From an uncultured Gammaproteobacteria bacterium (GTDB lineage: Bacteria; Patescibacteriota; Patescibacteriia; Patescibacteriales; GWC2-42-12): 64,000 bases of DNA. A program made the position numbers and the translations under genes. The DNA lies in assembly GCA_964560005.1 (NCBI GenBank), contig CAZLKB010000001.1, positions 13,079-77,078 of the forward strand, written 5' to 3'. The notes beneath the pieces were generated by a model, which was not told the DNA's origin, made no database searches, and saw nothing but the letters and a program-made list of their open reading frames with translations. This document shows positions 2,418-60,152 of the stretch, in pieces (within the stretch, counting starts at the first letter, position 1; each line of letters opens with the position of its first letter).

Positions 2418-2634
2418 ATTATTTTTTAATAATTTTTATATTATCATTATACGATTGCGCCGATACGCTGTCAAGATTAAAAGACAAAAATATTTTAGGC
2501 TGCCCCCCTGCTTGCCCGCCCTGGGTGGGGAATCCAGAGAGAGGCGGTTCTCTCCTCCAAATCATAATTCATATTGAAAATTAGGATATTTAGTTATTTT
2601 TTAAAAATTAAAAATTAAAAATTAAAAATTTTCT

Positions 2635-3360
2635 TCACTTCCCCAGCGTCCAGCCGAAAACTTTCTGCACGGCGTTGCTTAAAACGTCTACCAGGGAAAT
2701 ATTGCCCGCGCCGGTGTAAAACACGTACTGCTCGGAATATATCTTGATTTGGTTAGAATCGGTGGCGCTGACCGAATACCGATAAACCGAATCCGGATCC
2801 AGCGCGGGAATTATCAGGATATGGTTAAAGCCGAAGTAAGTATCCTTAAAAACTTTTTTGTCTTTCTCCCCGCTTTTATAATATTCCGCTTCAACGTACG
2901 ACCGCCTGTTGGTCTGACAGCTGATCACCGCCCGGATCTCGGTTTTGTCGCCTTCTTTGGCGGTATAGAGCTCGCTGGCTACATTGTTAATCGTGAATAT
3001 TTCGGTTTCGCCGAAATCAAAAACATTGGTGCCCGAGCCTTCAAGGTTGATCTGCAGCATCTCAAAATTTTCGCTCGCGGCGATGGCCTGCGCCCTTTTG
3101 GCCGCTTCCGTCGTTGAGGTCGCTATGACGATTTTTTGGCTGATATCAAAGGTATTTTTTGTCTGATTAACCTCAATCGCTCCTTTATCGGCGCCGGAAA
3201 ATAAAAACATTCTGAATAAAAAATATAAGAAAAACAAAATTAAGAGGATAATGATGATCCAGACAATAATCCGCCTGCGGCGCCTTTTTTTCGCCTCAGT
3301 TTCTTTTTCTTCTTCTAAAGCCGCCGCCTTAAGCTCGGCTTGATTATTAGGAGAATCCAT
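2635..3360 (-). CDS. single-pass membrane-anchored hypothetical protein
   Basis: 241-aa ORF. A basic stretch (KKRRRRRI) precedes one TM helix (IVWIIIILLILFFLYFLFRMFLF), followed by a soluble domain with no motif I recognise. Confidence 0.5.
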   Translation of the reverse strand: MDSPNNQAELKAAALEEEKETEAKKRRRRRIIVWIIIILLILFFLYFLFRMFLFSGADKGAIEVNQTKNTFDISQKIVIATSTTEAAKRAQAIAASENFEMLQINLEGSGTNVFDFGETEIFTINNVASELYTAKEGDKTEIRAVISCQTNRRSYVEAEYYKSGEKDKKVFKDTYFGFNHILIIPALDPDSVYRYSVSATDSNQIKIYSEQYVFYTGAGNISLVDVLSNAVQKVFGWTLGK

Positions 3361-3831
3361 AAATTAAATTTTCAATTTCTAATTTTCAATTTCTAAACAA
3401 TTATATAATTTCTCAATTTTCAATTAATTTCATTTCTTAAACTCGTTCCAATTTTATTAAAAATCAGTGTTAATTCATGAGCTTCTTTCCATAATTACCT
3501 TAATTCATTAATTTCTTCCTTGTTGGTTTCAGCGATTAACTCTAACCAATATTTAGTTTCCTGAATTTCTTTTCTACAGATAAATATTTTATTTTTAAAA
3601 TCTTTTCTTGAAGTGGCGCCGTTGGCTTCGCAATAATTCGCTCCGACACTAGTGGCTGATCTGATTAGTTGCGACACTATATTATCGTTTATTGAATTCC
3701 TTTTAATTTTTATTAACAACCCGATTATTTTTTTACTAAATAATTTTGTTCTATCCTCCAAATCGTACTGCATAATTGAAAATTATTTCATTGGAAATTG
3801 TTTGAAAATTAGAAATTGAAAATTAAAAATT
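3361..3831. repeat. heptamer-built inverted repeat whose arms (3361..3428 and 3775..3831) enclose the four-helix-bundle gene
   Basis: The reverse complement of the right arm shares a perfect 23-nt run, AATTTTCAATTTCTAATTTTCAA, with the left arm. Further matches are AACAATT and AATTTTCAAT. The arms abut the start of the 2635..3360 gene and the stop of the 3832..5019 gene. Confidence 0.85.
3495..3773 (-). CDS. four-helix-bundle protein (23S rRNA intervening-sequence protein family), ended by an in-frame TAA
   Basis: LIRSATSVGANYCEANGATSRKDFKNKIFICRKEIQETKYWLELI is the family core motif. After TAA at 3495-3497 the same frame continues LWKEAHELTLIFNKIGTSLRNEIN to TGA at 3420-3422, which looks like the missing last helix. 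Confidence 0.8.
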   Translation of the reverse strand: MQYDLEDRTKLFSKKIIGLLIKIKRNSINDNIVSQLIRSATSVGANYCEANGATSRKDFKNKIFICRKEIQETKYWLELIAETNKEEINELR

Positions 3832-5019
3832 CTACTTATATCTTAAAGAAATCAGCGGATCGCTCTTGCTCGCCTGCCTGGCCGGAATCAGGCCGGTGAA
3901 AAATCCCACCAAGGTGGCCACCGCTAAAATAAAAATCAAAAACCAGCCGGGAAAATAAAACAGCGAAATCGCCAGGCCGCCCATTTTCTGGGCCAGGAAA
4001 TTAAATAAAAAATTAAACAGCTGGCCGGCGATAAATCCCAGCGCCACGCCGAAAACCCCGCCCAAAAAACCCATAATGGTTGATTCAAAGACAAACATCC
4101 AAAGAATATCCTGATTGGTCGCCCCGATTGATTTCATGATGCCGATTTCTTCCGTTCTTTCCATGAGCGTCACCACCATGGTATTGAACATGCCGATGGC
4201 GCTGACCATTAAGGCGATAGCTCCGAACAGGCCGAGAATTATCCTGACTACCTGAAAAGTTTTTTCCACTTGATCAATGATGTCGGTTAAGGCGGAAACT
4301 ATGAACCCGCCGCCGGTTAGGCTGTTCCTGACGTCGTTCATCGCCCGGCTGGAAGAGCATTTGACCTTCAGCCTGGAATAGGCGAAAGACGGGTAAAGAC
4401 TAGCCAAGGTTTTTTGGTTGGCGAAAACAATGATGTCTTTTTTGTCAACCAGTCCGGTAATTTTATAATCTATGGCCGCCCTTTCCCCCGAATCGCCGGT
4501 AAAAAATATTTTTATGCTTTCCCCCGCCATCGCTTCCGGAGCCTTTTCAAATACTTTGGCTAAAGTGTTGGAAATTATCACCCCGCCGCTTCCCTCGCCG
4601 ATCTCTTCTCTCTGAATGACTTTCAGGCCTTCCAGGGCGAAAAAATTTTCATCAACCGCGATTACCTTGGCGTCCGTCACCAAGCCGCTAAACTCTAATT
4701 GCCCGGTAGTTTCAAAAACCGGGCTAACCAGGCTGACACCGGGAATTTTACCGATGCCTAAAATCTCCGCCTGGCTGATGGCCGGGCTGGATTCTTTAGG
4801 ATAAACGTCTAAGGTTACGAGCGAATCGGCCGTGGTAATGGTTTCTAAAAGAGTCCTTTGGATGCCGAAGCCCAAGGCGACCAGAAATAAAATCGCGCCG
4901 ATACCCACGCTCATGCCTAAAATGGTCAAAAGCGTCCTGGAAGTTCTGGCCTTAAACATTCTGGTGGAAAATTTTAATAGATTCCAGAAACCCATAAAGT
5001 AATAATTTTCAATTCTCAA
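3832..5019 (-). CDS. ABC transporter permease, FtsX/MacB type
   Basis: The N-terminal TM helix RTLLTILGMSVGIGAILFLVALG is followed by a large extracytoplasmic domain and then three C-terminal TM helices containing EIGIMKSIGAT. The first 8 codons (MRIENYYF) are repeat-encoded, so the real start may be ATG at 4995. Confidence 0.85.
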   Translation of the reverse strand: MRIENYYFMGFWNLLKFSTRMFKARTSRTLLTILGMSVGIGAILFLVALGFGIQRTLLETITTADSLVTLDVYPKESSPAISQAEILGIGKIPGVSLVSPVFETTGQLEFSGLVTDAKVIAVDENFFALEGLKVIQREEIGEGSGGVIISNTLAKVFEKAPEAMAGESIKIFFTGDSGERAAIDYKITGLVDKKDIIVFANQKTLASLYPSFAYSRLKVKCSSSRAMNDVRNSLTGGGFIVSALTDIIDQVEKTFQVVRIILGLFGAIALMVSAIGMFNTMVVTLMERTEEIGIMKSIGATNQDILWMFVFESTIMGFLGGVFGVALGFIAGQLFNFLFNFLAQKMGGLAISLFYFPGWFLIFILAVATLVGFFTGLIPARQASKSDPLISLRYK

Positions 5020-5152
5020 TTTTCAATTTTCAAACAATGACCAATGGATTAATGATTAAATTTTCAAACATGTACTCAATTTAATTAATTGAAAATTAAA
5101 ACATTGAAAATTCATTGAAAATTAGAAATTGAAAATTGAAAATTTTAAATAT
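5004..5152. repeat. heptamer-built inverted repeat ('GAAAATT' subfamily) between the ABC ATPase and permease genes
   Basis: AATTTTCAATTCTCAATTTTCAATTTTCAAACAATG opposes CATTGAAAATTCATTGAAAATTAGAAATTGAAAATTGAAAATT. Confidence 0.85.
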
Positions 5153-5194
5153 TACTTCGTTAGTATCATTCACCCCGAAAGCCTGGCTGGATTC

Positions 5195-6622
5195 TTAATA
5201 CCTTAATAACAACAAAAGCTCTATCTCTTTGGAAATTTTCTCGGCCAGTCTTTTATCGTAGCCTAAACCCTGCTCTTTTATCGGCAGATCAAGCAATTTT
5301 TTAAACTCGTCTCTGCCGATGCGATTGGCCAGCCGGTCAAAAATTACTGTTGACAATTTGTCCAAAGCCTCCTGACTGAAATTTAATTCCAGCCGGGCGT
5401 TAACGTAGCCGGCCAATTCCCGGGCGCTTTTATCTTTATCGGCGAAATCTATCTTGCCGGCCTGATGAACCAGCTGCTTGACATTGTCGGAAAATTTCCT
5501 GGCCAAGCGCTTGTCCCAGCCGGCTCCGCCCTTCTCTGTCGGTAAATCCAATTGTTCATAAAAATCATGAAATCCGTCCTTAAAATACAAGAAACTCTCC
5601 ACTTTTTTGATCGCCCTTTCAATTTGATCGTGCGTCATGGTAAAAAACAGGTGGGAAAAAATCTGCTGGGCTTTAAACGGCATTAATAAATTGCCGACCC
5701 GGCTGGACGACATGCCTTTAAACGACTGGATTAAAAGCCGCAAATCGGTCGGGATATACTCTCCCTTAATAAAATCCTCCCTAACTTTTCCGTCTTTAAA
5801 AATATAACTGTCCACCTGGTGCGCCTTAACGGCTTTATACTCAATTTTGACTATTTTTCCATCCAGCATATAAACGATCTTGTTGCCGTATTGCAAATGG
5901 GCAGGATCGTGCGTGACTAAAATGATGGTCTTTTTGTCTATTTCGTTTAGCTCTTTGAAAATCGTCATGACCACATGAGAGGACTTGGAATCCAAATTCC
6001 CCACCGGTTCGTCGGCTAAAATAATCTCGGGATTATTGATTAAAGATCTGATGACGGCGACGCGCTGTTTTTGGCCGCCGGAAAGCTCGGACGGAAATTT
6101 AACGGCTTGATCCAAAATATTATAGCGCTTTAACAGCTCTACCGCCGCCGCCTTAACTTCTTTCACCATTTTCCCGCAAAAAATTTTAGGCAAACAGACG
6201 TTTTCCAGGATATTTAAAGTACTGATTAGATAAAACGACTGGAAAATCATGCCGATTTTATGGCGATGGAACCAGGAAATTTCCCGGTTGTTAAAAACGC
6301 TAATGTCTTCCTGGTCCACGATAACTTTGCCGTTGGTGGGTTTTTGCAGGCCGGCGATGGAATATAAAAGAGTTGACTTGCCGCAGCCCGAGGGGCCGAA
6401 AATAACCACATATTCTTGGGGATAAATTTCTAAATTTATCCCGTCCAGCGACCTGGTTTCGTTGGCTTTGCCCTGATTATAAATTACATCCACATCTTTT
6501 ATTATAATATTGGCTGGCTGGCGCGGCTTTGTCTCGGCCGCCGCCTCGGGAACGGCGCTGGCTGGCTCCTGGGGCGCGGTAATTGTCGCGTTGGGAATAT
6601 TATTTTGAGTCTGATTCTCCAT
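5195..6622 (-). CDS. ABC transporter ATP-binding protein (MacB/LolD-like) with a ~250-aa C-terminal extension
   Basis: Walker A GPSGCGKSTLL, signature LSGGQKQRVAV and Walker B ILADEPVGNLD are present. The track start at 6661 is a TTG, so I prefer ATG at 6622 (MENQTQ). The extension holds two copies of a LDLP-x-E-x-G-x-G-x-DKRLA-x-K motif. Confidence 0.85.
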   Translation of the reverse strand: MENQTQNNIPNATITAPQEPASAVPEAAAETKPRQPANIIIKDVDVIYNQGKANETRSLDGINLEIYPQEYVVIFGPSGCGKSTLLYSIAGLQKPTNGKVIVDQEDISVFNNREISWFHRHKIGMIFQSFYLISTLNILENVCLPKIFCGKMVKEVKAAAVELLKRYNILDQAVKFPSELSGGQKQRVAVIRSLINNPEIILADEPVGNLDSKSSHVVMTIFKELNEIDKKTIILVTHDPAHLQYGNKIVYMLDGKIVKIEYKAVKAHQVDSYIFKDGKVREDFIKGEYIPTDLRLLIQSFKGMSSSRVGNLLMPFKAQQIFSHLFFTMTHDQIERAIKKVESFLYFKDGFHDFYEQLDLPTEKGGAGWDKRLARKFSDNVKQLVHQAGKIDFADKDKSARELAGYVNARLELNFSQEALDKLSTVIFDRLANRIGRDEFKKLLDLPIKEQGLGYDKRLAEKISKEIELLLLLRY

Positions 6623-6802
6623 GTTATATTTTATCCTGCGCCCCGCCCGGCGGAACAGCAAAGGACAAGTTGCTTTTTAAAATAATCTTCATCATTAAAA
6701 GTCAAAAAATCAAGCCCTGACGATTTTATTTACGGCCTTGCCTGATAAAATTATACAACTTTAGAGAGTTCTTGTAAAACTTCCTAAATCTCGCGTTATG
6801 AG

Positions 6803-8434
6803 TTATGAGTTATGCGTTACCCGTCCTGCCAGCCCCAGCGCCAGCCATAAAAACAACACCCCGAAATGCAGGCTCCAAAGCCAATGGTCAAAAGACATTA
6901 GAATTACCAGGGAAATAAAAATAGAAATACTTACCATTGAATTTATAGCATAGTCGTTTTCGCTAATTCTAAATTTATAATCTTCCCCCAGCCGGGGACA
7001 TGCAATTTTTAATGAATTGTTTGAAAATTGGTTAATTGAAAATTGTTTGTCCTCCGAAGGCTTGCCGAAGGGGGGAAAATTGAAAATTATTAAACATACT
7101 ATCAGCCCAATAAATAAAATTAATCCTACTATCCCCGTCTCCGCCCAAACCAATAAGAACACATTATGCGCCGGCTGGTAATAATAGCTCGACTCGTCCG
7201 GCTTTAACTCATTATACTGGGCCAAAGTATAATTCCCTAGACCCGCGCCTCCGGCCCAATATTTTTTAATTATCGGCCAGGCATTTTTAATCGACTCAAT
7301 CCTTTCGCTGTTTGATTTAATTTCCAGTCGGTTCGGCGCGTTCGCGAAGCTTAAGGCGCTTGGCATCGCCGCGAAAGATTGAACCGGATATAGCCGCGTC
7401 ATAACTAAATTAGGGTACAGTAAAAATAAAACCAGCGCCACCGCTCCGATAATCAGCATAGCCTGCGCCAGCGCCTTCTCGGCCAATAGGTTTCTTTTGG
7501 CTAAAGACCACAGAACCAGCGCCAGCATGCCCAGCCCGGCTCCCAGCCAGGCGCTTCTGGAAAAGCTAAAAAATAAGGTAGCGGTAAAAATCACTAATAA
7601 TGACCAAGACAATATTTTAAAAATTTTAACATTGAAAATTGTTTGAAAATTATCAGTCGGCTGGTTAATTGAATTTTTTGATTTTTTTGAAAATTGAAAA
7701 TTGAAAATTGAAAATTGATTAAATTTTTCTAGCCTAACAACTTCCCCTACCAAAAGCAGTATGCCTACAGCCATCAGCCCGCCCAATATATTGGGGTGAT
7801 CCAGAGAGCCATAGGCTCTTAGCCATCTTTCGCCCATGCCGTCCGACGCCACCGTCTCAATAACCGACGTTCCCGGCTGGCTCGCCTGGTGCAAAGCCAG
7901 CCCGAGCCATTTGCTTTGAAATGTGGCTTGAAATAAAAACTGCCAGATCGCCAGCAAGGCCTGGGTCGCTATGCCGAAAAGCAAACTCCAAACCAGCTTT
8001 ACTCTATGGTATTGGCTGGCCGCCAACAGCCAGAATAAACCCGCGCCTAAAATCAGCCAGCCGAATTTATAAAACGCCAGCAGTTTGCTCAAAGCAAAAA
8101 AAATGGAAGTAGCCGAAACTAAAATTAAACCTCCAATCAGCAGCCAGGTTAATTGAAATTTTTTAATTGTTTGAAAATTAGATAATTGGAAATTGTTTAA
8201 AAATTGAAAATTAAAAATTAAAAATTTTTTTTGGAAAACCCGATAAATCACAAAAAGAAATAATAATAATATCAATAGTACATCCGTCCCATACAAACTG
8301 TATGTTCCATACTCCCACGGCCCGTTGTTTAAAACTCCCGGCTTAATGATCCAGCGGGTCTGGAGCGGCAGCGTGAAAACTAAGAGGTATAAGCCGTATT
8401 CAATTGTTTTATTTAAATACTTCATATAATACAA
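6803..8434 (-). CDS. O-antigen ligase/polymerase (Wzy_C-like) polytopic membrane protein
   Basis: Many TM helices, plus FSFSRSAWLGAGLGMLAL, which is typical of Wzy_C. Three repeat-encoded in-frame insertions are present (FNFQFLNNFQLSNFQ, FNQFSIFNFQFSKKSK, FSINQFSNNSLK). Confidence 0.7.
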   Translation of the reverse strand: MYYMKYLNKTIEYGLYLLVFTLPLQTRWIIKPGVLNNGPWEYGTYSLYGTDVLLILLLFLFVIYRVFQKKFLIFNFQFLNNFQLSNFQTIKKFQLTWLLIGGLILVSATSIFFALSKLLAFYKFGWLILGAGLFWLLAASQYHRVKLVWSLLFGIATQALLAIWQFLFQATFQSKWLGLALHQASQPGTSVIETVASDGMGERWLRAYGSLDHPNILGGLMAVGILLLVGEVVRLEKFNQFSIFNFQFSKKSKNSINQPTDNFQTIFNVKIFKILSWSLLVIFTATLFFSFSRSAWLGAGLGMLALVLWSLAKRNLLAEKALAQAMLIIGAVALVLFLLYPNLVMTRLYPVQSFAAMPSALSFANAPNRLEIKSNSERIESIKNAWPIIKKYWAGGAGLGNYTLAQYNELKPDESSYYYQPAHNVFLLVWAETGIVGLILFIGLIVCLIIFNFPPFGKPSEDKQFSINQFSNNSLKIACPRLGEDYKFRISENDYAINSMVSISIFISLVILMSFDHWLWSLHFGVLFLWLALGLAGRVTHNS

Positions 8435-8545
8435 ATTTTCAATTTCTAATTTTCAAACAATGCAATAATTCTTCAATTCTTAAATTAATTGAAAATTAAA
8501 TCATTAAAAATTGTTTGAAAATTGAGACTTGAAAATTGAAAATTA
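8434..8545. repeat. heptamer-built inverted repeat ('GAAAATT' subfamily)
   Basis: AAATTTTCAATTTCTAATTTTCAAACAATG opposes ATTGTTTGAAAATTGAGACTTGAAAATTGAAAATT. Confidence 0.85.
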
Positions 8546-8547
8546 TC

Positions 8548-9744
8548 TCACTTTACTAAAAATAAACCGCTAATCTTCTTTATATACTTCTCCCGATACT
8601 CCTCTCTCCTGTCATTGGCATGAAATTTTAAAACCTGATCGCTGATTACCACGCGAGTATCGCGGTTCATCAGCTCGGTTAAAATTTTCGGCAGCAACCT
8701 CAGCTGTAAAGCTTTAAACCAGGGTTCCAGGCCGCCGAAAAACATATCTGCCAACTCGTAATAAAATTTCCCCGGAGCTCTGCCGGCGTCGCGCCGCCTT
8801 GACCAATGTCCGGCCTGTTCGCCCGCCGGCTTGTCCGCCAAATCCGTCAGCTGACGGAGTAAAGCGGACCGATTAGGCAGGCAACCGTTCAGCCAGCTGT
8901 TGACTCCGATAAATTTTTCGTAAACCCCCTCCTGCTGATAAAATGGCGTTAACCCGGCCAGCCAATAAATAAAATATATATCTTCCTTATTAACCCCCTT
9001 TTCGGCCCAAGGCCGATCCTTGCCTACCGGACAAGCAGGCGCCTCGGGTGGAAACGTGGGGTTGGGGAGATTTTCCTCTTTTGCCCCCTTGATAAAGGCT
9101 CGTCTCGCCGTAGCGTAGCCGGGGCGGAGGGATGAAGGGGGATTATTTTTTGTTTGTAGCATCAAGGCGCCTAAATCCAGAGCCTCTTCACTGATAAAAA
9201 AACTCAAACAAATTTTATCTTTAAATTTGCCTAAACCCGGCCTTAAGCCAAGCATCTTAACTAGCGCGACACAGCAGAATCGCGTCAGCCAGATTCTCTT
9301 AGCTTGAGTAATTATAAATAAATCAATATCTCCCTCTTCTTTTAAATTATGGCTGCCCATTAAATTTCCCAGCGCGATCATTTTTATCCAAGGAATCAAT
9401 TTAAAAAGTCTAGCGACTTTAAGGGCGCGTTTAAATTTTCTGTCGGTTACATTATAACGAGCCAGCCGCACCTTAAGGATAGCTTCGCGCCCGGCCAAAA
9501 AATAAAAACCGTTTTTTTGTTCAACGATATTCTTTCCCCCTTGATAAAGCGGGACAAAGGGGGATTTTCCAATGAGAGCATCTAGTTCTTTGACCACTTC
9601 AAAAAAACCGCACTTTAAACCCAGTCCCTGCCAGATCTCAAAAGCAGTCAAGGGAAAGTCAAACATATCAAAATAGGCAACCGTTTTCACGATTGCCTCC
9701 CTAATATTTAAAAATTGTTCGGAATTAATATCTTTAAAGCGCAT
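8548..9744 (-). CDS. nucleotidyltransferase-fold (Pol-beta superfamily) domain protein, hypothetical
   Basis: [21 protein letters not shown] fits the G-S...D-x-D nucleotidyltransferase motif. The track start at 9798 lies in repeat sequence ([18 protein letters not shown]), so I prefer ATG at 9744 (MRFKDIN). The gene contains GC-rich palindromic in-frame insertions. Confidence 0.5.
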
Positions 9745-9750
9745 GTTTAT

Positions 9751-9960
9751 GATGTAAAATGTAAATCTCAAAATGTAAAATGACAATTTAAAATACAAAA
9801 TAAAAATTCTAAATTCTAATATCTAAATTCTAAATAAAAAGTAATGAATATTGGTTTTTTATTTGAAATTTAGATATTGGAATTTGTTTGGATTTTAGGA
9901 TTTATAATTTTAAATTTTTCATTGTCATTTTACATTTTGAGATTTACATTTTACATTTTA
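9751..9960. repeat. nested inverted repeat: 'TGTAAAA' arms enclosing 'CTAAATT' arms
   Basis: Outer arms GATGTAAAATGTAAATCTCAAAATGTAAAATGACAAT / ATTGTCATTTTACATTTTGAGATTTACATTTTACAT. Inner arms AATTCTAAATTCTAATATCTAAATTCTAAAT / ATTTGAAATTTAGATATTGGAATTT. Confidence 0.9.
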
Positions 9961-18128: not shown

Positions 18129-18152
18129 ATTATGTTTATATTGAAATAATTA

Positions 18153-18268
18153 ATGCAAAATGTAAATCTCAAAATGTAAAATGACAGTTTAAAATGTAAA
18201 ATGTCAAATTAGAAATTTTAAATTTTGCATTGTCATTTTACATTTTGAGATTTTAACTTTACATTTTT
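18153..18268. repeat. AT-rich inverted repeat, 'TGTAAAA' subfamily
   Basis: ATGCAAAATGTAAATCTCAAAATGTAAAATGACAG opposes TGTCATTTTACATTTTGAGATTTTAACTTTACAT. The right arm supplies the last codons of the DedA ORF (VKNVKLKSQNVK). Confidence 0.85.
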
Positions 18269-18868
18269 CACATGCCTCCTCACATACCAAACCGCTCCAA
18301 CTACTATAACAATTCCTATCACAAAATCAAATTTATGGAAATACGGACTTAAAATATTCCAATTGTCGCCCAGCTTCTTGCCGATATAAGCCAAGCCTAA
18401 GCACCAGAGCAGAGAACCTAAAAAAGTATAAATTATAAACTTGGTAAAATTCATTTTGGCGATGCCAGCTGGTAGGGAAATAAAAGTCCGCACCACCGGC
18501 ATAAGCCGCGAGAAAAAAATAGCGCTAGATCCGTATTTATTAAAAAAATTATCAGAGATTGTTAAATCATGATGGGAAATTAAAATATACTTTCCATATT
18601 TTTCTATAAAACCGCGTCCACCCCAGAGGCCGACCGCATAAGCCACTGCTGAACCCACGACGCAGCCCAAAGCTCCGGCTAAGCTTACACCCAGTAAGCT
18701 AAACTGCCCTCTGGCCACCAAAAAGCCGGCGAAAGGCATAATCACCTCCGATGGCAAAGGAATGCAGGCGCTCTCAATCGCCATCATTAAACCAACGCCA
18801 AATAAACCAAGTTTAGAAATACTATTAATGATGAACGATGTCACAACGCCGATTATTGCTGTTACCAT
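18233..18868 (-). CDS. DedA family membrane protein
   Basis: LPSEVIMPFAGFLVARGQFSLLGVSLAGALGCVVGSAVAYAVGLWGGRGFIEKYGKY is the typical DedA/SNARE-associated core. Confidence 0.85.
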   Translation of the reverse strand: MVTAIIGVVTSFIINSISKLGLFGVGLMMAIESACIPLPSEVIMPFAGFLVARGQFSLLGVSLAGALGCVVGSAVAYAVGLWGGRGFIEKYGKYILISHHDLTISDNFFNKYGSSAIFFSRLMPVVRTFISLPAGIAKMNFTKFIIYTFLGSLLWCLGLAYIGKKLGDNWNILSPYFHKFDFVIGIVIVVGAVWYVRRHVKNVKLKSQNVK

Positions 18869-18870
18869 AG

Positions 18871-18980
18871 TAAATTTAAAATTGAAAAATCAAAGTTTAA
18901 AATGACAGTTTAAAATGTAAAATTAATAATTTTTCATTTTACATTGTCATTTTGCATTTTAAAATTTACATTTTCCATTT
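18871..18980. repeat. AT-rich inverted repeat, 'TGTAAAA' subfamily
   Basis: AAATGACAGTTTAAAATGTAAAAT opposes ATTTTACATTGTCATTTTGCATTTTAAAATTTACATTTT, between the ArgRS stop and the DedA start. Confidence 0.8.
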
Positions 18981-18982
18981 TT

Positions 18983-24211: not shown

Positions 24212-24333
24212 AGTTTTATTCTAACATATATTGAAATTTCAGCAAATTTTAGGGCTGCGCCCGGGTTGCCTGTTTCCGGAGCTTTGGTATAATGAAATCT
24301 AAACGAAGCGCATTTAATTCTTACGATATATAA

Positions 24334-24415
24334 TGCGAATACTACAAATTATATTCAAATACTACAAAAAAATATTTATCGGATATTTGTAGTATTCGCA
24401 TTCCATTTGTAACAT
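24334..24415. repeat. AT-rich inverted repeat, 'ACTACAAA' subfamily, in the divergent nagB/activase promoter region
   Basis: TGCGAATACTACAAATT and TTCAAATACTACAAAAA oppose ATATTTGTAGTATTCGCA and CCATTTGTAACATT. Confidence 0.8.
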
Positions 24416-24428
24416 TAGGATTATACTT

Positions 24429-29477: not shown

Positions 29478-32400
29478 TTACAAATTTTTTAATTGCTCTC
29501 TAAACTTCTCTAATTCTGCCTGCCACCCCGCTAATTTCTCTTTTTCTTTTTTCACGATCTCGGCCGGCGCATTACTAACGAATTCCTTATTAGCCAGCCT
29601 AGCTTCCGCGGCCTTAATTACTTTTTCCAGATTAACAATTTCCTTTTCCAGTCTGGCCTTCTCTTTGGCTTTATCCACGGCTCCAACCAAATATATTTCT
29701 ATATCGCCAACGGCCGCGTAAATCGCGCCGGCAATTTTCTCTCCTTTAGTTTTAATTTCTAACTCACTAATGCCGGTGCGTAAACTTTTTATTAAGTGCG
29801 CCTGCTCGGTTATTAATTTTTTCCGCTTACCCGCATAAATCACCGCTTTAACTTTCTGCCCTGGCTCAACTTTATTTTCCGCGCGCGCGTTGCGGATAGC
29901 GACAATAATCTCTTTCACCACCTCAAACTCTATTTTGTCATTCTGGAGCGAAGCGATAGAATCTGATTTCGGCCATTTCTCCACCATTAAAAAAGTTTTA
30001 TGCCCCATCTTTTGCCAAATTGTTTCCGTCACGAATGGCATAAACGGATGCCAGAGCTTTAATAAATTTTCTAAAACATAATTTAATATCCGGCTCTTTT
30101 CTTCATTTTTTTCAAACTTGCTGGCCTCTAAATACCAATCGGCTAAATCATCCCAGGTGAATTCGCGCAAACTCTCCCCGGCCTGCGAAAAACTATAACT
30201 TTCCAAATCTTCGGTTACTTTCTTTATTAACTCTTCCATTTTTCCCAATATCCACCTGTCCGATATTGTTAGATTCTTTAAGTTTAATTCATTATTCATG
30301 ATTCGTGATTCATGATTCGTGATTATATAACGCGCCACGTTCCACAGCTTATTGGTAAAATTCCTGAAACTGGCGATTTTATCTTCGCTATATTTGGCGT
30401 CGTTGCCCGGCGTATTGCCCATTAACAGCGATAAGCGAACCGCGTCGGTGCCGAATTTATCAATCATCTCCAGCGGGTCAATGCCGTTGCCTTTTGATTT
30501 GCTCATTTTCTTGCCGTTCTTATCCAGTATCATGCCGTGCAGATATACTTTTTCGAACGGAATTTCGTTTAAGGCGTAAAAAGACATGATAATCATGCGC
30601 GACACCCAGAGGGTAATTATTTCATAGCCGGTTTCTAAGACCTGCGTGGGATGAAACCTGGCTAAATCACCCGATTTTTTGCCTTTAACATAATTATCCG
30701 GCCAGCCCAAAGTGGAGAAGGTCCAGGTGCCGGAAGAAAACCAGGTGTCTAAAGTATCTTCATCTTGAACCCAAAAATCTTTTTTCAATTCATTTAATAT
30801 ATCTTGGCATTCATCGCTATTAAAATGCGAGGCGGAATTTTCAACTTTAATTATTTTCGCGTCTAGCGCAACGGCTATTTCAGCAACCTCTTCCGCAGTG
30901 ACTGCGTGATCCTCTCCGGCTTGAAAGATTACTATTTCTCCGACATTTTCTTTTATTTTCTTAAAATCGTATTTATAATTTTTATACTCTATTAACTCCT
31001 TCTTTTTTGTTCTTAGGGAAGGAGCCAGCATGACCAGCTTTTTTATTTTTAAATTACTGCTCTGTATTATTTTTAACGCTAAGGCACTGCCTAATGAATG
31101 CGTCACTATAATGGAATTTTTATCTATTTTAGCACTAGCCAAGACAAACTTTTCCTGCTCATCGCGATTAGGTTTATCCGGATTGGGCAAGATCTGCCAA
31201 AAATTTTCTTGATTCGGCAATTGCTTGTTTAACCAATTTAACGGGTCCTTTACATCTCTGGTACGATAAAAACCGTGCAAAAAAACAAAATTAGAATTCT
31301 GCGGCGCTTCCGCGCCGACATAAATTTCTTGGTCCTTATCTTCTAACTTCTTACTTCTACCTTCTGCCTTCTTATACCAAACCGGTATCCTATGCCCGAA
31401 CCAAAGCTGGCGCGAAACACACCAATCGTGCAGATTATTCATCCAGTCCAGATACCTTTTTTTGAATCTCTCCGGGATAAATTCGATCTTTCCGTCAGCG
31501 GCCGCCGCGATGGCTTTTTCCTTTAGCGACTTTCCACCCAAACGTTTCAATTTCTTGTCCACGTCCACGAACCATTGCTTTGACGGTATAGGTTCGATTT
31601 GCGTGCCGCAGCGGTAGCATAACGCGATATTATGCAGATAGCCGTCTTCAATATGGTCAAGCAAACCCATTTTTTCCATGTCGGCCAAAATCGCCTCCCG
31701 CGCTTCTTTAGTGGTCAAACCGGCGTATTTACCCGTATTGGCCATCATCCGGCCTTGTTCATTTATGACTTGCTTCATGGCCAGATTATGCCTTTGGGCA
31801 ATTTGATAATCCGTAAAGTCATGGGCCGGCGTAACTTTAATCGCGCCTGAGCCGAATTTAGGATCAACCGCCCGGTCGGCCACCACGATAATTTCAAATT
31901 CACCCAGCACGCCCGGTATTTTATATTTCTTGCCCACCATTTTCTCGTAGCGCTTATCTCCCGGGTAAACTGCCACGGCCGTATCGCCCAATTTTGTTTC
32001 CGGACGAGAAGTGGCCAAAACGAATGGACCGTATTTCAGCCAATACAATTTGCCTTTTTCTTCTTTATATTCCACCTCGTCATCGGCTAAAGTGGACTGG
32101 CACCTGGGGCACCAATTTACCACCCTGACTCCGCGATAAATCACGCCTTCGTCATACATATCCACAAACAGCTTTTTCACTGCCTTGGCCCGCGGCTCAT
32201 CCAAGGTAAAGGCCTGGCGCGACCAATCCAAAGACGCGCCCATCTTTCTGGTCTGGCGCAAAATCGTAGCCTGGGTCTCCCGCAAAAATTGCCAAACCCT
32301 TTTTAAAAATTCTTCTCGACCTAAATCGTGGCGCGTTTTTTTCTCTTCCTGCCACAATTTTTTTTCCACCACGTACTGCGTAGCGATGGGCGCGTGGTCC

Positions 32401-32657
32401 GTGCCCGGAATCCAAAGAGCACGTTCGCCCTTCATCCGATGATAACGAATCAGTAAGTCTTCTATGGCCAGCATGGCCGAATGCCCCAGATGCAATTTAT
32501 CCGTAATGTTGGGTGGAGGCAGAACTATGGTGTACGGTTTGGCCGTTTTAGGCAAGCCTAAGTTATCCGGATTAAAAAATCCCGACTTTTCCCACTTTTC
32601 ATAAACGCCGTCTTCGTATTCGGCCGGATTATATATTTTCGGCAATTCTACAGACAT
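29478..32657 (-). CDS. valS: valyl-tRNA synthetase with a nested alpha/beta serine-hydrolase domain
   Basis: PNITDKLHLGHS (HIGH), the CP1 editing domain, WCVSRQLWFGHRIPVWY, QDEDTLDTWFSS, KMSKSKGN and a C-terminal coiled coil. A 202-aa segment separates VWY from QDEDT, where only a short peptide is expected. Confidence 0.95.
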   Translation of the reverse strand: MSVELPKIYNPAEYEDGVYEKWEKSGFFNPDNLGLPKTAKPYTIVLPPPNITDKLHLGHSAMLAIEDLLIRYHRMKGERALWIPGTDHAPIATQYVVEKKLWQEEKKTRHDLGREEFLKRVWQFLRETQATILRQTRKMGASLDWSRQAFTLDEPRAKAVKKLFVDMYDEGVIYRGVRVVNWCPRCQSTLADDEVEYKEEKGKLYWLKYGPFVLATSRPETKLGDTAVAVYPGDKRYEKMVGKKYKIPGVLGEFEIIVVADRAVDPKFGSGAIKVTPAHDFTDYQIAQRHNLAMKQVINEQGRMMANTGKYAGLTTKEAREAILADMEKMGLLDHIEDGYLHNIALCYRCGTQIEPIPSKQWFVDVDKKLKRLGGKSLKEKAIAAAADGKIEFIPERFKKRYLDWMNNLHDWCVSRQLWFGHRIPVWYKKAEGRSKKLEDKDQEIYVGAEAPQNSNFVFLHGFYRTRDVKDPLNWLNKQLPNQENFWQILPNPDKPNRDEQEKFVLASAKIDKNSIIVTHSLGSALALKIIQSSNLKIKKLVMLAPSLRTKKKELIEYKNYKYDFKKIKENVGEIVIFQAGEDHAVTAEEVAEIAVALDAKIIKVENSASHFNSDECQDILNELKKDFWVQDEDTLDTWFSSGTWTFSTLGWPDNYVKGKKSGDLARFHPTQVLETGYEIITLWVSRMIIMSFYALNEIPFEKVYLHGMILDKNGKKMSKSKGNGIDPLEMIDKFGTDAVRLSLLMGNTPGNDAKYSEDKIASFRNFTNKLWNVARYIITNHESRIMNNELNLKNLTISDRWILGKMEELIKKVTEDLESYSFSQAGESLREFTWDDLADWYLEASKFEKNEEKSRILNYVLENLLKLWHPFMPFVTETIWQKMGHKTFLMVEKWPKSDSIASLQNDKIEFEVVKEIIVAIRNARAENKVEPGQKVKAVIYAGKRKKLITEQAHLIKSLRTGISELEIKTKGEKIAGAIYAAVGDIEIYLVGAVDKAKEKARLEKEIVNLEKVIKAAEARLANKEFVSNAPAEIVKKEKEKLAGWQAELEKFREQLKNL
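30774..31298 (-). other. inserted YdeN/RBBP9-like serine-hydrolase domain inside valS
   Basis: FVFLHGF, LPNPDKPNRDE, IIVTHSLGS (Ser codon 31095-31097), FQAGEDHAV (Asp 30909-30911) and SASHFN (His 30825-30827). Confidence 0.7.
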
Positions 32658-32795
32658 AAAAAAATTTTTAATTTTGTAATTTTTAAAATAATTTCTAATT
32701 TTTAATATCTAAATATTTTATTATTTAGAAGTTTTATTAAAAATTAGGATATTTGAAATTATTTAAAAATTAAAAATTCAAAAATTAAAAATTAC
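32658..32795. repeat. AT-rich inverted repeat, 'TAAAAAT/GAAAATT' subfamily, directly upstream of valS
   Basis: AATTTTTAATTTTGTAATTTTTAAAATAATTTCTAATTTTTAATATCTAAATA opposes TATTTAGAAG...AAAAATTAGGATATTTGAAATTATTTAAAAATTAAAAATTCAAAAATTAAAAATT. Confidence 0.8.
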
Positions 32796-35370: not shown

Positions 35371-35444
35371 AGGGCATGTAGCTCAGCTGGTTAGAGCGTG
35401 GCTCTTATAAAGCCAAGGTAGATGGTTCGAGTCCATCCATGCCC
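35371..35444 (+). tRNA. tRNA-Ile, anticodon UAU
   Basis: Hand-folded cloverleaf. Acceptor GGGCATG/CATGCCC, D arm GCTC-AGCTGGTTA-GAGC and anticodon stem TGGCT/AGCCA. The anticodon loop is C-T-TAT-A-A, the T arm is GATGG-TTCGAGT-CCATC and the discriminator is A. No CCA is encoded. Confidence 0.85.
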
Positions 35445-35464
35445 ACTTAGGTAATATAAATTTA

Positions 35465-36217: not shown

Positions 36218-36233
36218 CCATAATGACGCTAGT

Positions 36234-36376
36234 GGTCGTTCGGAATGTTTGTTTTGAGCGAATACGAAATTGTAGTATTTTTTCTTAAAATTATTCAATG
36301 CAAATTTTATTATTATAATTTTAAGAAAAAATACCCAAATTTCGTCTTGAGTGAAAAACAAACATTCCGAACGACC
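36234..36376. repeat. long hairpin repeat (about 60-bp arms) after hsp20
   Basis: GGTCGTTCGGAATGTTTGTTTTGAGCGAATACGAAATTGTAGTATTTTTTCTTAAAATTA opposes TAATTTTAAGAAAAAATACCCAAATTTCGTCTTGAGTGAAAAACAAACATTCCGAACGACC. It shares the ACGAAATTGTAGTA/TTTTTTCTT module with 23266..23460. Confidence 0.85.
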
Positions 36377-36396
36377 AACTGTAAATTTATAAAACT

Positions 36397-48782: not shown

Positions 48783-48953
48783 AAGGTTAAAATTTTTAAT
48801 TTTAAATTTTATAATTTTTAAACAATTTTTAATGATTTAATTTTCAATTTTAAAACAGGCCTTTAAATATATTTTGTTTAAAAATTTAAGTATTAAAAAT
48901 TGAATATTGTTTAAAAATTAATAATTAATAATTAATAATTGAAAATTTGTCTT
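48783..48953. repeat. AT-rich inverted repeat between gyrA and the ferredoxin gene
   Basis: AATTTTTAATTTTAAATTTTATAATTTTTAAACAATTTTTAATG opposes ATTAAAAATTGAATATTGTTTAAAAATTAATAATTAATAATTAATAATTGAAAATT. AATTAAT is repeated three times in tandem. Confidence 0.8.
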
Positions 48954-51713
48954 TTAAACCCATGTCACGCACGCTACCTTATCCGATTCTTCCTTAAAGC
49001 GCATTAATCTGACGCCCTGCGTATCCCGACCCAAGAGGTTAACGCTCTTAAACGGCAACCGGATCACCTGGCCTTTTTCCGAAATTATAATTATATCTTT
49101 TTCTTCCATGGTCTCGGCGTTAACAATAAAGGCGTTAATCAATTTTCCGGTCTTGGGGGTTACTTTGGCTGTTTTCACCCCTGAGCCGCCCCGACCCTGG
49201 ACTTTATAAAGCCCCACGGCCGAACGCTTGCCGAAACCGTGTTCCAGGATGGCCAAGAGCTGGTATTTCTTAACTTTTTCTTTATCATTTTTAATAATAC
49301 CCATGCCGACCACCGCGTCGCCCTGCTTTTTTAACCTGATGCCGCGAACGCCGGCCGCGTTCCGCCCCATGTCCCGGACATCGGTTTCCTCAAATCTAAT
49401 GGCCTGGCCCATGGCCGTCACCAACTGGATATGATCGTCGCCGGAAGTCGGTTTGGTCCAAATTAATTTATCATCATCTTTTATTTTAATGGCGATCAGC
49501 CCCGAGCGCCGGACATTGGCGAAGGCTTCAATTTCCACCTTCTTGACCAAGCCCTTTTCCGTGGCGAAAAATAAGTACTTGCTCTTGGCTAATTTATCCA
49601 ACGGTAAAACCGAGGTGATTTTTTCGCCGCCGGCCAACTGCAGAAAGTTAACGATCGGCGTGCCCTTAGCCGTTCTGGTAGCTTGGGGTATTTCGTAAGC
49701 CTTGAGCTGGAAAACCCGCCCCTTGGTGGTAAAAAATAATAGATCATTATGAGTGAAAGTGGTGAACATAAAATCAACCATGTCTTCTTCCTTGGTAGTC
49801 AAACCGATAACGCCCTTGCCGCCCCGTCCCTGCACTTTGAAAGTGTCCGGCGCGGTGCGCTTAATGTAGCCGTCTCGCGTCATCATGACCACGGCTTCTT
49901 CGTTCGGCACTAAGTCTTCGGTGGAAAATTCCTTGACCCCGTGAGCGACAATCTTGGTTTTTCTGTCATCGCCGAATTTTTCCGCTAAATCCTTTATTTC
50001 TTTTTTAATAATATCTTTTATCTTATGAGTTGATCTTAAAATTGATTCCAGATCTTTAATTAAAGCCCTCTTTTCCTTAAGTTCATTTTCTATCTTCAGT
50101 CTTTCCAGGTTGGCCAAAGTGGATAGTTTCATGTCCAAAATCGCCAAAGTCTGGCGCTCGGACAGTTTAAACTTCTTCATTAAATTAACTTTGGCCACTT
50201 CCTTATCTTTACTGGCTTTAATGATCTTTATCACCGCGTCAATATTGTTTAAAGCGATCATCAAGCCTTCTAAAATATGAGCTCGCTCGCGCGCTTTATC
50301 CAAATCAAACTGGGTGCGGCGCTTCACCACCTCGGCGCGATGCTTAATATATTCTTCCAAAACCATTTTTAAAGTTAAAACCTTGGGCTGAATGCCGTCC
50401 ACTAAGGCCAGCATATTAACATGGAAAGTTTCCTGAAGCTGGGTCATCTTAAACAAGCTGTTTAAAATCTTCTTGGGGTAAGCGTCTTTCTTTAAATCAA
50501 CTACAATTCTGACCCCGTCCTTATCCGACTCGTCGCGCAAATCTTTAATGCCTTCCAATTTTTTATCTTTTACCAGCTCGGCGATTTTTTCTACCAGGGA
50601 CGATTTATTAATCTGATAAGGTATTTCGGAAATCACAATTTGAAATGAGCCGTTTTTATTTTCCACCACTTCGGCCACGCCGCGCATAACGATGCCGCCC
50701 TTGCCGGTGGCGTAGGCTTGCAATATATCTCTTTGATTATAAATTACGCCGCCGGTCGGAAAATCCGGCCCCTTAACGAACTGCATTAAATCCTCCACAT
50801 TAGCTTCAGGCTTATCAATTAAATGAGTAATGGCGTCGGTTAATTCTCTTAAATTATGAGGCGGAATATTGGTCGCCATGCCCACGGCTATACCCATAGT
50901 GCCGTTTAACAGCAGGTTGGGTAATTTAGCTGGCATCACCAAGGGTTCCTGATGCGACCCGTCAAAATTGGGTATGAAATTCACCGTGTTTTTGTCAATA
51001 TCAAACATCAGCTCTTCCGCAATGGCGGATAATTTTGCTTCGGTATAGCGCATGGCCGCGGCGCCGTCCCCGTCCATGGAGCCGAAATTGCCCTGACCGC
51101 GAACCAGGGTGTAGCGCATGGAAAAATCTTGAGCCATCCTGACCATGGAATCGTAGACCGCCGAATCGCTGTGCGGATGGTATTTGCCTAAAACTTCGCC
51201 GACGACCGTCGCCGATTTCCTGAATCTGGCTCCGGCCCTTAGCCCAATGCTCCACATGGCATAAAGAATCCGGCGATGCACCGGCTTGAGCCCATCGCGC
51301 ACATCCGGCAGAGCCCTGGAAACGATCACGCTCATAGCATAATCCAAATATGACTGGCGGATTTCATCAACCAGAGGCCGCGGCTCAACCAAGCCATAAA
51401 GAGTTTTTTCCTTTTTAGATACCGTTTGATTGGGAATTGAGCCAACGCCGTACTTTTCTCCGGTTTCATCGGCCTCCGCGCCGGTTTCCGGCTTTTTCTT
51501 TGTTGGTTCAACCGCCAAATTATTTATCTTGTCATCCTGAGCCTGTCTCTTGTCATCCTGAACTTGATTCAGGATCTTTTTTCCCGCCACCGGCACAGCT
51601 ACGATCTTTTTCTCAACCTTAACCTTAGCCGGCTGCTTGAGCTTGGCTTTTTGTTTCGGCGCGATCGCCTTGGGCTTTTTCTTTAATACTTTTTTTGCCA
51701 TTCTATTTGTCAT
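48954..51713 (-). CDS. gyrA: DNA gyrase subunit A with a ~100-aa basic N-terminal extension
   Basis: [32 protein letters not shown], the active-site region [10 protein letters not shown], and C-terminal beta-pinwheel repeats. The extension includes a palindrome-encoded [13 protein letters not shown] at about 51530..51585. Confidence 0.95.
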
Positions 51714-59987: not shown

Positions 59988-60120
59988 ATACTACAAATTA
60001 ACACCCAAATACTACGAAAGAATGCAAAAAACAGACAATACAAATACCTTAGATATAAGATATTTGCAGTATTTGGATAATTTTTGTAGTATTTGAATTA
60101 TATTAATTTGTAGAATGCGC
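59984..60120. repeat. AT-rich inverted repeat, 'ACTACAAA' subfamily, directly upstream of ftsK
   Basis: TTCAAATACTACAAATT and CCCAAATACTACGAAAG oppose ATATTTGCAGTATTTGG, ATTTTTGTAGTATTTGAA and AATTTGTAGAATGCGCA. CAAATAC recurs at offsets 0, 21 and 56. Confidence 0.8.
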
Positions 60121-60152
60121 ATTATATTAATATTATACCATAATTAATCAAT

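Follow-up and report, generated by a model that had tools for sequence, protein, structure and literature searches.

A four-helix-bundle gene between inverted heptamer arms in a Patescibacteriota operon, a probable decaying copy of an insertion cassette

The PF05635 protein family was named after open reading frames (ORFs) within 23S rRNA intervening sequences. In a stretch of 64,000 nucleotides assigned to Patescibacteriota (assembly GCA_964560005.1, contig CAZLKB010000001.1, positions 13,079 to 77,078; hereafter the window), a four-helix-bundle (4HB) gene of this family is enclosed by the two arms of an inverted repeat and lies between protein-coding genes of one operon. What kind of element puts such a gene there? 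Our analysis indicates that the element is probably a decaying copy of a self-contained insertion cassette, whose arms pair to loop the cassette out and whose protein serves the cassette. What is new here is that an element of the rRNA intervening sequence kind is now found in operons, with arms built of heptamer arrays.

The 4HB gene was recognized as a 92-aa ORF on the minus strand (3495-3773), the one 4HB copy detected in the window by phmmer. The ORF matched PF05635 (23S_rRNA_IVP) with E = 6e-15 and 55.8 bits (cut-off 33.8) and TIGR02436, 'four helix bundle protein', with 68.4 bits (cut-off 24), and a relative with a solved structure is 2RLD (E = 4e-16). Its match covered positions 10-83 of the 106 in the PF05635 profile, so that the four-helix domain is incomplete. 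The frame is closed by an in-frame TAA nonsense codon (3495..3497, minus strand), leaving a protein of 92 aa without helix 4. The original reading frame (3420..3773, minus strand) has this one internal stop and ends at a TGA (3420-3422) inside the 3' arm; reading through to it gives a 116-aa protein with the fourth helix restored, and homologues are 114-118 aa long. In three relatives, the codon aligned to the TAA was TTA, AAA, and TTA. A sequence identical to the exact 92-aa product is not on record. These results suggest that the window's copy is broken, being either a pseudogene or a truncated form.

Read in the sense of the gene, the 5' arm (58 nt, 3774..3831, minus strand) lies between the stop codon of the upstream FtsX permease gene and the 4HB ATG, abutting both, and runs AATTTTT AATTTTC AATTTCT AATTTTC AAACAAT TTCCAAT GAAATAA TTTTCAA TT. 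The 3' arm (62 nt, 3367..3428, minus strand) is the reverse complement of this pattern. With the gene, the arms form a cassette of 465 nt (3367..3831, minus strand), its boundaries being those of a DNA alignment of four cassettes described below. The original prediction had proposed reverse-complementary arms with a perfect 23-nt core, and these were borne out: the 23-mer AATTTTCAATTTCTAATTTTCAA had zero-mismatch copies at 3367-3389 (+) and 3802-3824 (-), and with up to 3 mismatches it was matched 11 times in the window versus 0.01 expected (100 shuffles). The arms enclosed the 4HB gene alone, as had also been claimed, the sole ORF between them being 3495-3773 (-).

The minimum-free-energy fold of 3350-3845 paired the two arms across the ORF. 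Folding the arms alone, joined by GAAA, gave -35.3 kcal/mol and 29 contiguous pairs (z = -6.6; 0/200 shuffles were as good); the fold of the whole 496-nt region was unexceptional (z = -1.08). Each arm held repeats of a single polarity, AATTTTC-type only at 3361-3428 and GAAAATT-type only at 3775-3831, which indicates one split hairpin around the gene and not two self-contained palindromes. A two-palindromes artefact was ruled out on this ground. We also considered other roles for the arms. An outward sigma-70 promoter in the GAAAATT arm was rejected, as promoter-like sites in 2500-9000 numbered 18 against 13.5 +/- 3.7 expected, and none was found on the sense strand of the 3' arm. A terminator role was rejected as well, no terminator-like site being present within the arms.

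Two hairpins of the same arm family carried no gene. One, at 5004-5152, lies between the ABC ATPase and the FtsX permease genes (-36.6 kcal/mol, z = -4.7), and the other, at 8434-8545, lies upstream of the Wzy gene (-30.2 kcal/mol, z = -5.9) and contains an exact copy of AATTTTCAATTTCTAATTTTCAA. Their arms aligned with those of the 4HB cassette across ~60 nt, with an arm consensus common to both, and the three elements of this family fell inside ~5.2 kb of operon (3367-8545). Both hairpins had been proposed at these positions; their existence was confirmed, and their loops proved shorter than the claimed 30-50 nt.

The genes around the cassette are all on the minus strand and are transcribed in the order Wzy, ABC ATPase, MacB/FtsX permease, 92-aa ORF, and 241-aa protein. 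They comprise an O-antigen-ligase-like Wzy gene (6803-8434), the ABC ATPase gene (5195-6661), the gene of the MacB/FtsX-type ABC permease (3832-4995), which matched PF12704 and PF02687, and the gene of the 241-aa protein (2635-3360), which has one hydrophobic segment and no Pfam match. The original prediction had placed the 4HB gene between same-strand protein-coding genes, an ABC permease upstream and a membrane protein downstream, and this placement held, the downstream product being the 241-aa protein with its single hydrophobic segment. The permease stop codon (3832-3834) touches the 5' arm and the ATG of the 241-aa gene (3358-3360) comes 6 nt past the end of the 3' arm, so the arms take up the entire intergenic space. 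An Rfam search of the window detected no rRNA, and the neighbours of the cassette are protein-coding genes.

We fetched orthologues of the FtsX permease with their surroundings and measured the spacer from the FtsX stop to the next ATG. The 241-aa gene came after FtsX in every orthologous operon fetched. The spacer was empty in L086/L087 (15 nt; FtsX 75% identical to that of the window), L081 (12 nt; 73%), L088/L089 (17 nt; 69%), and L090/L091 (15 nt; 64%). At the same junction, L084 (FtsX 68% identity) had a 144-nt hairpin of AATTTTT units without a gene, and L082/L083 (71%) had arms together with an intact 117-aa 4HB gene. Thus, the empty site that the original prediction had asked for at the orthologous junction was found, with spacers of 12-17 nt, and the gene without its arms was seen at this junction in no related genome. 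The L082 protein was 53% identical to the window's copy and its arms differed too, which indicates that two cassette lineages have occupied the same junction. These observations suggest that the cassette is wedged co-directionally into a 12-17-nt spacer between adjacent operon genes. At the ATPase-permease junction, a hairpin orthologous to 5004-5152 was present in L082, and L086, L088, and L090 were without it. In L081, whose operon is without the 4HB cassette, this junction held a 103-nt stretch of AATGACA-type units (4898-5000), a further heptamer flavour at this place.

The nearest protein relatives of the window's copy (83-89% identity) sit at other, unrelated gene junctions: at the pheS/pheT boundary of a Falkowbacteria genome (L187), with an unknown gene on one side and that of a glycine-rich protein on the other (L186), and in a third, different context (L188). 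When the DNA of the four loci was aligned, similarity extended from the first heptamer past the upstream stop codon to the last GAAAATT before the next gene. Among the four cassettes, identity was 88-100% in the arms (5' arm 88-93%, 3' arm 95-100%), 89-94% at codon positions 1 and 2, and 52-65% at codon position 3; the flanks, at 21-56%, were unrelated. Arm sequence is thus conserved as strongly as the amino acids, and the pattern indicates that the protein is under purifying selection. Purifying selection acts on the arms as well as on the protein, and the two diverge in step. Sharp homology edges in differing contexts are what an insertion element would be expected to show, and the unit appears to be a discrete cassette with exact boundaries.

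The original prediction had asked whether other 4HB genes are also flanked by heptamer-built inverted repeats. We compared 85 4HB genes in 80 loci of different Patescibacteria species with 434 other ORFs of the same loci as controls, the score being that of a local alignment between 150 nt of upstream flank and the reverse-complemented 150 nt of downstream flank (threshold 30). The median flank score was 43 for 4HB genes and 17 for control ORFs, and a score of >=30 was reached by 76/85 4HB genes (89%) versus 25/434 controls (5.8%; odds ratio 138). The arms had an autocorrelation of 0.48 at lag 7 and 0.42 at lag 14 against a baseline of ~0.30, and each held 4-5 heptamer units. By the median, the upstream stop codon lay 2 nt before the 5' arm and the downstream start 8 nt after the 3' arm. 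Neighbours were co-oriented with the 4HB gene at 78/85 upstream (p = 3e-16) and 68/80 downstream positions (p = 1e-10). Taken together, the cassette seems to consist of a PF05635 4HB gene and two inverted arms, each made of 4-5 tandem heptamers and an inner segment.

The same layout was found outside this sample. The 2RLD protein comes from Bacteroides thetaiotaomicron. Its relatives were represented by 56 distinct genes on taxonomically unassigned metagenome contigs, many labelled human gut; the gene of the 2RLD protein itself had a match of 100% identity on human-gut metagenome contigs. Inverted repeats of AATTGAC, AATTGAA, or AATTGAT units flanked 87.5% of these genes versus 2.7% of 188 control ORFs, and 47/49 upstream neighbours were co-oriented. 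Plasmid-borne 4HB genes of Cyanobacteria, Bacteroidota, Spirochaetota, and Chloroflexota had this flank layout with other heptamers, namely CCAGTGA / CTGGTCA in Euhalothece, AATTCAA in Nostoc flagelliforme, CAATTCG in Nostoc punctiforme, AATCCCC and AATCGTA in Planktothrix, TTTTAGA in Gloeocapsa, GGGGAGA in Leptolyngbya, GATTAGT in Bernardetia, CTCTCCG in Treponema, and GGATGAA in Chlorohelix. For the plasmid-borne genes of Calothrix and Chondrinema, the arm signal was weak or negative.

In Xanthomonas and Dyella, the gene order was accB, 4HB (XCC0516-type), accC, with GGGAATC/GGGAATA units upstream and GATTCCC/TATTCCC downstream, the latter abutting the accC ATG (arms at 1924-2000 and 2331-2372 in L191, and at 1980-2000 and 2382-2415 in L194). 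Since two genera have this insertion in common, it is an old one. Versions of the layout in Xanthomonas, Leptolyngbya, and Treponema were GC-rich. The same layout thus surrounds 4HB genes in at least six bacterial phyla, and the heptamers that build the arms are always lineage-specific. The family is large: of just 8,000 candidates scored against one query, at least 7,810 proteins were matches at E <= 1e-10. A literature search, which did not cover subscription journals, found no work linking 4HB genes with heptamer repeats or holding the heptamer strings.

To relate arms and protein, we compared protein identity with the 7-mer similarity of the arms, and the two were correlated (Mantel rho = 0.27, 0/500 permutations as high). 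When two cassettes occurred in one genome (50-58% protein identity), their arms were no closer than those of random pairs. These findings suggest that the arms belong to the gene and not to the host, and their co-divergence with the protein argues for the 4HB protein as a partner and not an arbitrary passenger. The proposal of a mobile element similar to intervening sequences or to MITEs (miniature transposable elements with inverted repeats), with the 4HB protein as partner, gained support from the sharp boundaries, the differing contexts, and this co-divergence. In a register anchored on AAACAAT/ATTGTTT, 85% of arm positions were paired, compared with 65-67% when the register was shifted by 7 and 31-58% for other shifts; the percentage is biased upward, as the anchor caught just 20 cassettes and the best register was picked for each. 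Variable heptamer positions switched between C-G and T-A, and together with the anchored pairing this indicates that complementarity is maintained. [quoted passage not shown]

Among known systems, the closest parallel is the rRNA intervening sequence of Leptospira and Coxiella burnetii, which has the same protein family, an ORF looped out where terminal inverted repeats pair into a stem, and a size of ~430-470 nt. Like the cassette, it is sporadically distributed, and it is regarded as selfish. The Coxiella element has a 28-bp stem of terminal inverted repeats around an S23p ORF and is removed by RNase III (PMC4990558); its ORF is decaying too (PMC4990558). PF05635 ORFs have also been described in 16S and 23S rRNA insertions of bacteria of the Candidate Phyla Radiation (preprint 10.1101/2024.02.27.582315). 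In contrast to these elements, the cassette is hosted by the spacer between two protein-coding genes and not by an rRNA helix, and its excision, shown for the rRNA elements to be by RNase III, is suggested by analogy. The tandem-heptamer build of the arms was established here for the operon cassettes. By its protein family and architecture, the cassette corresponds in operons to the intervening sequence of 23S rRNA, with heptamer-array arms.

The arms themselves resemble two families of repeats, both made of tandem 7-nt units that often form convergent, hairpin-forming pairs in operon spacers. STRR heptamer hairpins lie between hupS and hupL in cyanobacteria, and as late as 2009 no function was known for them (PMC2670836). 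In Xanthomonas, GGGAATC repeats have been interpreted as G-quadruplex motifs, and one genome has 70 convergent pairs of them (PMC4692102). A supplementary list of the same study places one array between bccP and XCC0516 but does not point out that XCC0516 is the 4HB protein of 2GSC; we found the partner of this array. Both papers treat the repeats as stand-alone motifs and make no link with 4HB genes, whereas the repeats described here form both ends of a gene cassette, and the gene-free hairpins share the cassette's arm sequence.

Avd of diversity-generating retroelements (DGRs) is a homologous four-helix bundle that assembles into a pentamer of positive charge and has structured RNA as its ligand; the solved relatives 2RLD and 2GSC have five chains each in their structure entries. 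Unlike Avd, the 4HB gene stands alone between heptamer arms, with no reverse transcriptase among the window's ORFs >=90 aa. MITEs and Rickettsia-type palindromic elements are likewise short, with inverted, hairpin-forming ends and several copies per genome at gene junctions, and they too have related tracts that are read as peptide inserts within a gene, here Wzy. The full cassette differs from both in its conserved non-transposase gene, its heptamer-array arms, its strong orientation bias, and the lack of a visible target-site duplication.

The reading of the window element as a decaying copy of such a self-contained cassette, which we consider probable, implies the following steps. Within the polycistronic transcript, pairing of the arms would loop out the cassette, by analogy with the family members inside 23S rRNA. 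RNase III needs a duplex of roughly 20-22 bp, which the 29 contiguous pairs of the arms-only fold exceed. The flanking genes may stay expressed in one of two ways, through a cut by RNase III or through a terminating ribosome that melts the base of the stem. The orientation bias indicates that sense transcription matters, since a hairpin with symmetric arms would be equally disruptive either way round. The 4HB protein, as a relative of the pentameric RNA-binding Avd, most likely binds the heptamer arms and aids the spread or retention of the cassette, and the gene-free hairpins most likely derive from such cassettes or act as their partners.

Several results weigh against this reading. Mismatches in the arms carried no RNA-specific signal, G-U-compatible ones numbering 79 and A-C ones 74, with the same picture in the anchored register, so complementarity could be kept at the DNA level. 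No target-site duplication was visible at the four aligned insertion sites, where 1-2 nt could hide in the AT-rich flanks. Among the ORFs >=90 aa of the 64-kb window, no gene for a reverse transcriptase, transposase, integrase, or RNase III was found. A search of the 196 fetched loci for rRNA motifs found no rRNA gene, so that kinship with true rRNA intervening sequences is argued from the shared protein family and architecture only. Cargo-less hairpins of the same family occurred within ~8 kb of just 6/76 cassettes, and their link with the cassette is therefore not general. Finally, because of its nonsense codon, the window's copy says nothing about protein function at this locus.

A broader hypothesis, which we put forward tentatively and would not yet bet on, is that a single class of mobile cassettes, made of PF05635 genes with inverted heptamer arrays, extends across the bacteria and resides in operon spacers and rRNA helices, with heptanucleotide repeats often being their ends or remnants. 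Such cassettes might spread through an RNA or single-stranded intermediate, driven by an Avd-like pentamer that recognizes the arms. If true, this would cover heptamer repeat DNA as different as the cyanobacterial STRR, the GGGAATC arrays of Xanthomonas, and the hairpins between genes of Patescibacteria. Many of the '23S_rRNA_IVP' genes reported from CRISPR and restriction operons would then have been inserted there without being components of the system.

That the cassette is an ordinary DNA transposon or MITE is unlikely. Here the arms would be terminal inverted repeats for a transposase encoded elsewhere, the 4HB gene a passenger, and the gene-free hairpins deletion derivatives. Symmetric ends predict either orientation, yet 92% of the cassettes are co-oriented with the upstream gene; moreover, the tie to one small gene family persists across phyla though the heptamer changes, and the arms co-diverge with the protein. 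The missing target-site duplication and the lack of a transposase among the window's longer ORFs also speak against it. On the other hand, the arms lie at the ends in inverted orientation and have a conserved sequence, cargo-less copies are present in the same operon, both empty and filled sites are known, and the wobble test gave no RNA-specific signal, all of which a DNA element would explain.

We regard it as improbable that the arms are immobile host regulatory hairpins, acting on mRNA stability or translational coupling like STRR, with the 4HB gene an ordinary host gene so regulated. The heptamer hairpins between hupS and hupL have been proposed to stabilize transcripts or to couple translation (PMC2670836), the arms touch stop and start codons, and the accB/4HB/accC order common to Xanthomonas and Dyella shows that some insertions are old and stable. 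A fixed host device, however, does not account for cassettes of 83-89% protein and 88-100% arm identity at unrelated junctions with unrelated flanks, for the absence of the whole unit from closely related operons, for a different cassette lineage (53% identity) at the same junction in L082, or for the pseudogene state of the window's copy.

Movement through RNA seems about as doubtful. In this scenario, the transcript would be cut at the stem, the Avd-like pentamer would recruit a reverse transcriptase from elsewhere, and the cDNA would integrate at a new junction, with the heptamer arrays as products or guides. The reverse transcriptase of DGRs requires the relative Avd as its RNA-binding partner, and the RNA of DGRs has a long-range duplex flanking its template; the strong sense-orientation bias suits an element that needs transcription, and the lack of target-site duplications is also consistent with it. 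Against these points stand the absence of a reverse transcriptase gene in the window, at the ORF length given above, the lack of RNA-specific covariation, and a cDNA step without any direct evidence; furthermore, no relative was found in viral contigs. That the arm match is a by-product of AT-rich, low-complexity intergenic DNA, as the very AT-rich region, its short repeats, and the unexceptional whole-region fold (z = -1.08) might suggest, is refuted by the 11 matches of the 23-mer versus 0.01 expected, the arms-only fold (z = -6.6), the inverted repeats around 6% of same-genome control ORFs versus 89% of 4HB genes, and the GC-rich versions in Xanthomonas, Leptolyngbya, and Treponema, and has next to no chance of being right.

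For the cassette reading, the window locus is itself a decaying copy, and the interest lies in the general rule that it exposes for PF05635, namely inverted heptamer arrays on both sides, an insertion site between stop and start codon, and the orientation of the host operon. PF05635 is a large family with solved structures, and its function is known solely in DGRs. The rule ties the question of where rRNA intervening sequences come from to the heptanucleotide repeats of cyanobacteria and Xanthomonas and to the role of stand-alone Avd relatives. Two cassette loci encode proteins of solved structure, that of the 2RLD protein and the accB/XCC0516/accC operon of Xanthomonas (2GSC). The rule also calls for caution with guilt-by-association: a link to CRISPR was inferred for 23S_rRNA_IVP genes of cas loci, including those between cmr3 and cmr2 (PMC3936711), and where 4HB genes turn up in cas, restriction, or efflux operons, they may have been inserted without belonging to the system. 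We observed 4HB genes inside defence or efflux operons in L174 (Monoglobus), L179 and L182 (Gloeocapsa, Chlorohelix), L180 (Pseudanabaena), L181, and L185, the junctions being hsdS/hsdR, DUF1156/Swt1-HEPN, csx2/cas1, helicase/N6-methylase, and RND adaptor/permease.

Heptamer tracts also occurred within genes. In Wzy, an AATTTTC-type run (7675..7728, minus strand) is read as FNQFSIFNFQFS and, by alignment of Wzy orthologues, is a lineage-specific loop insertion. Similar tracts at about 7009-7080 and 8157-8226 of the same gene encode FNFQF-like peptides and are lineage-specific loop insertions as well. Only with the AATTTTC polarity are the three frames all free of stop codons; with GAAAATT, each of them contains TGA. 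GC-rich mini-inserts of 21-29 nt were nested in heptamer arms, for example CCCnGCCGAGGnnGGACAAG and CCGCCTGAGGCGGACCCGCCTCCGGCGGG; they were seen in L082 at about 6205-6233 and in its Wzy gene, and in the 5' arms of L186 and L188 (alignment columns about 50-70 and 111-131). In L082, the same mini-insert also lies within the Wzy heptamer tract and is read as SPPEADPPPAE. The mini-inserts look like a second, smaller element that targets heptamer tracts.

Long hairpins were present in the window at a frequency of roughly one per 6 kb. Those of AATTTTT type lay at the gene junctions 2601-2630, 32663-32794, and 48791-48920, and those of TACTACAAA type at the junctions 24329-24425 and 59970-60133. 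A second family of long intergenic hairpins, built of ATGTAAA/TCTCAAA-type heptamers, was found at 9752-9956, 18152-18265, and 18872-18981. The last two surround a VTT/DedA gene (18236-18868) and mimic a 110-nt inverted repeat that encloses it; this reading was rejected, since each of the two hairpins is self-palindromic. A perfect 23-nt inverted repeat followed the Hsp20 gene (36233-36377).

Three further features of the window concern translation and DNA topology. The valyl-tRNA synthetase (29481-32657, minus strand) had a Ser_hydrolase (PF06821) match at residues 461-616, within its catalytic domain. In the GyrA ORF (48957-51713, minus strand), the topoisomerase domain began at residue 133, which suggests an N-terminal extension or a start called too far upstream. 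Most bacteria decode AUA with a lysidine-modified CAU tRNA; the window carries a tRNA-Ile gene with the anticodon TAT (UAU) at 35372-35446, adjoining tRNA-Val(GAC).

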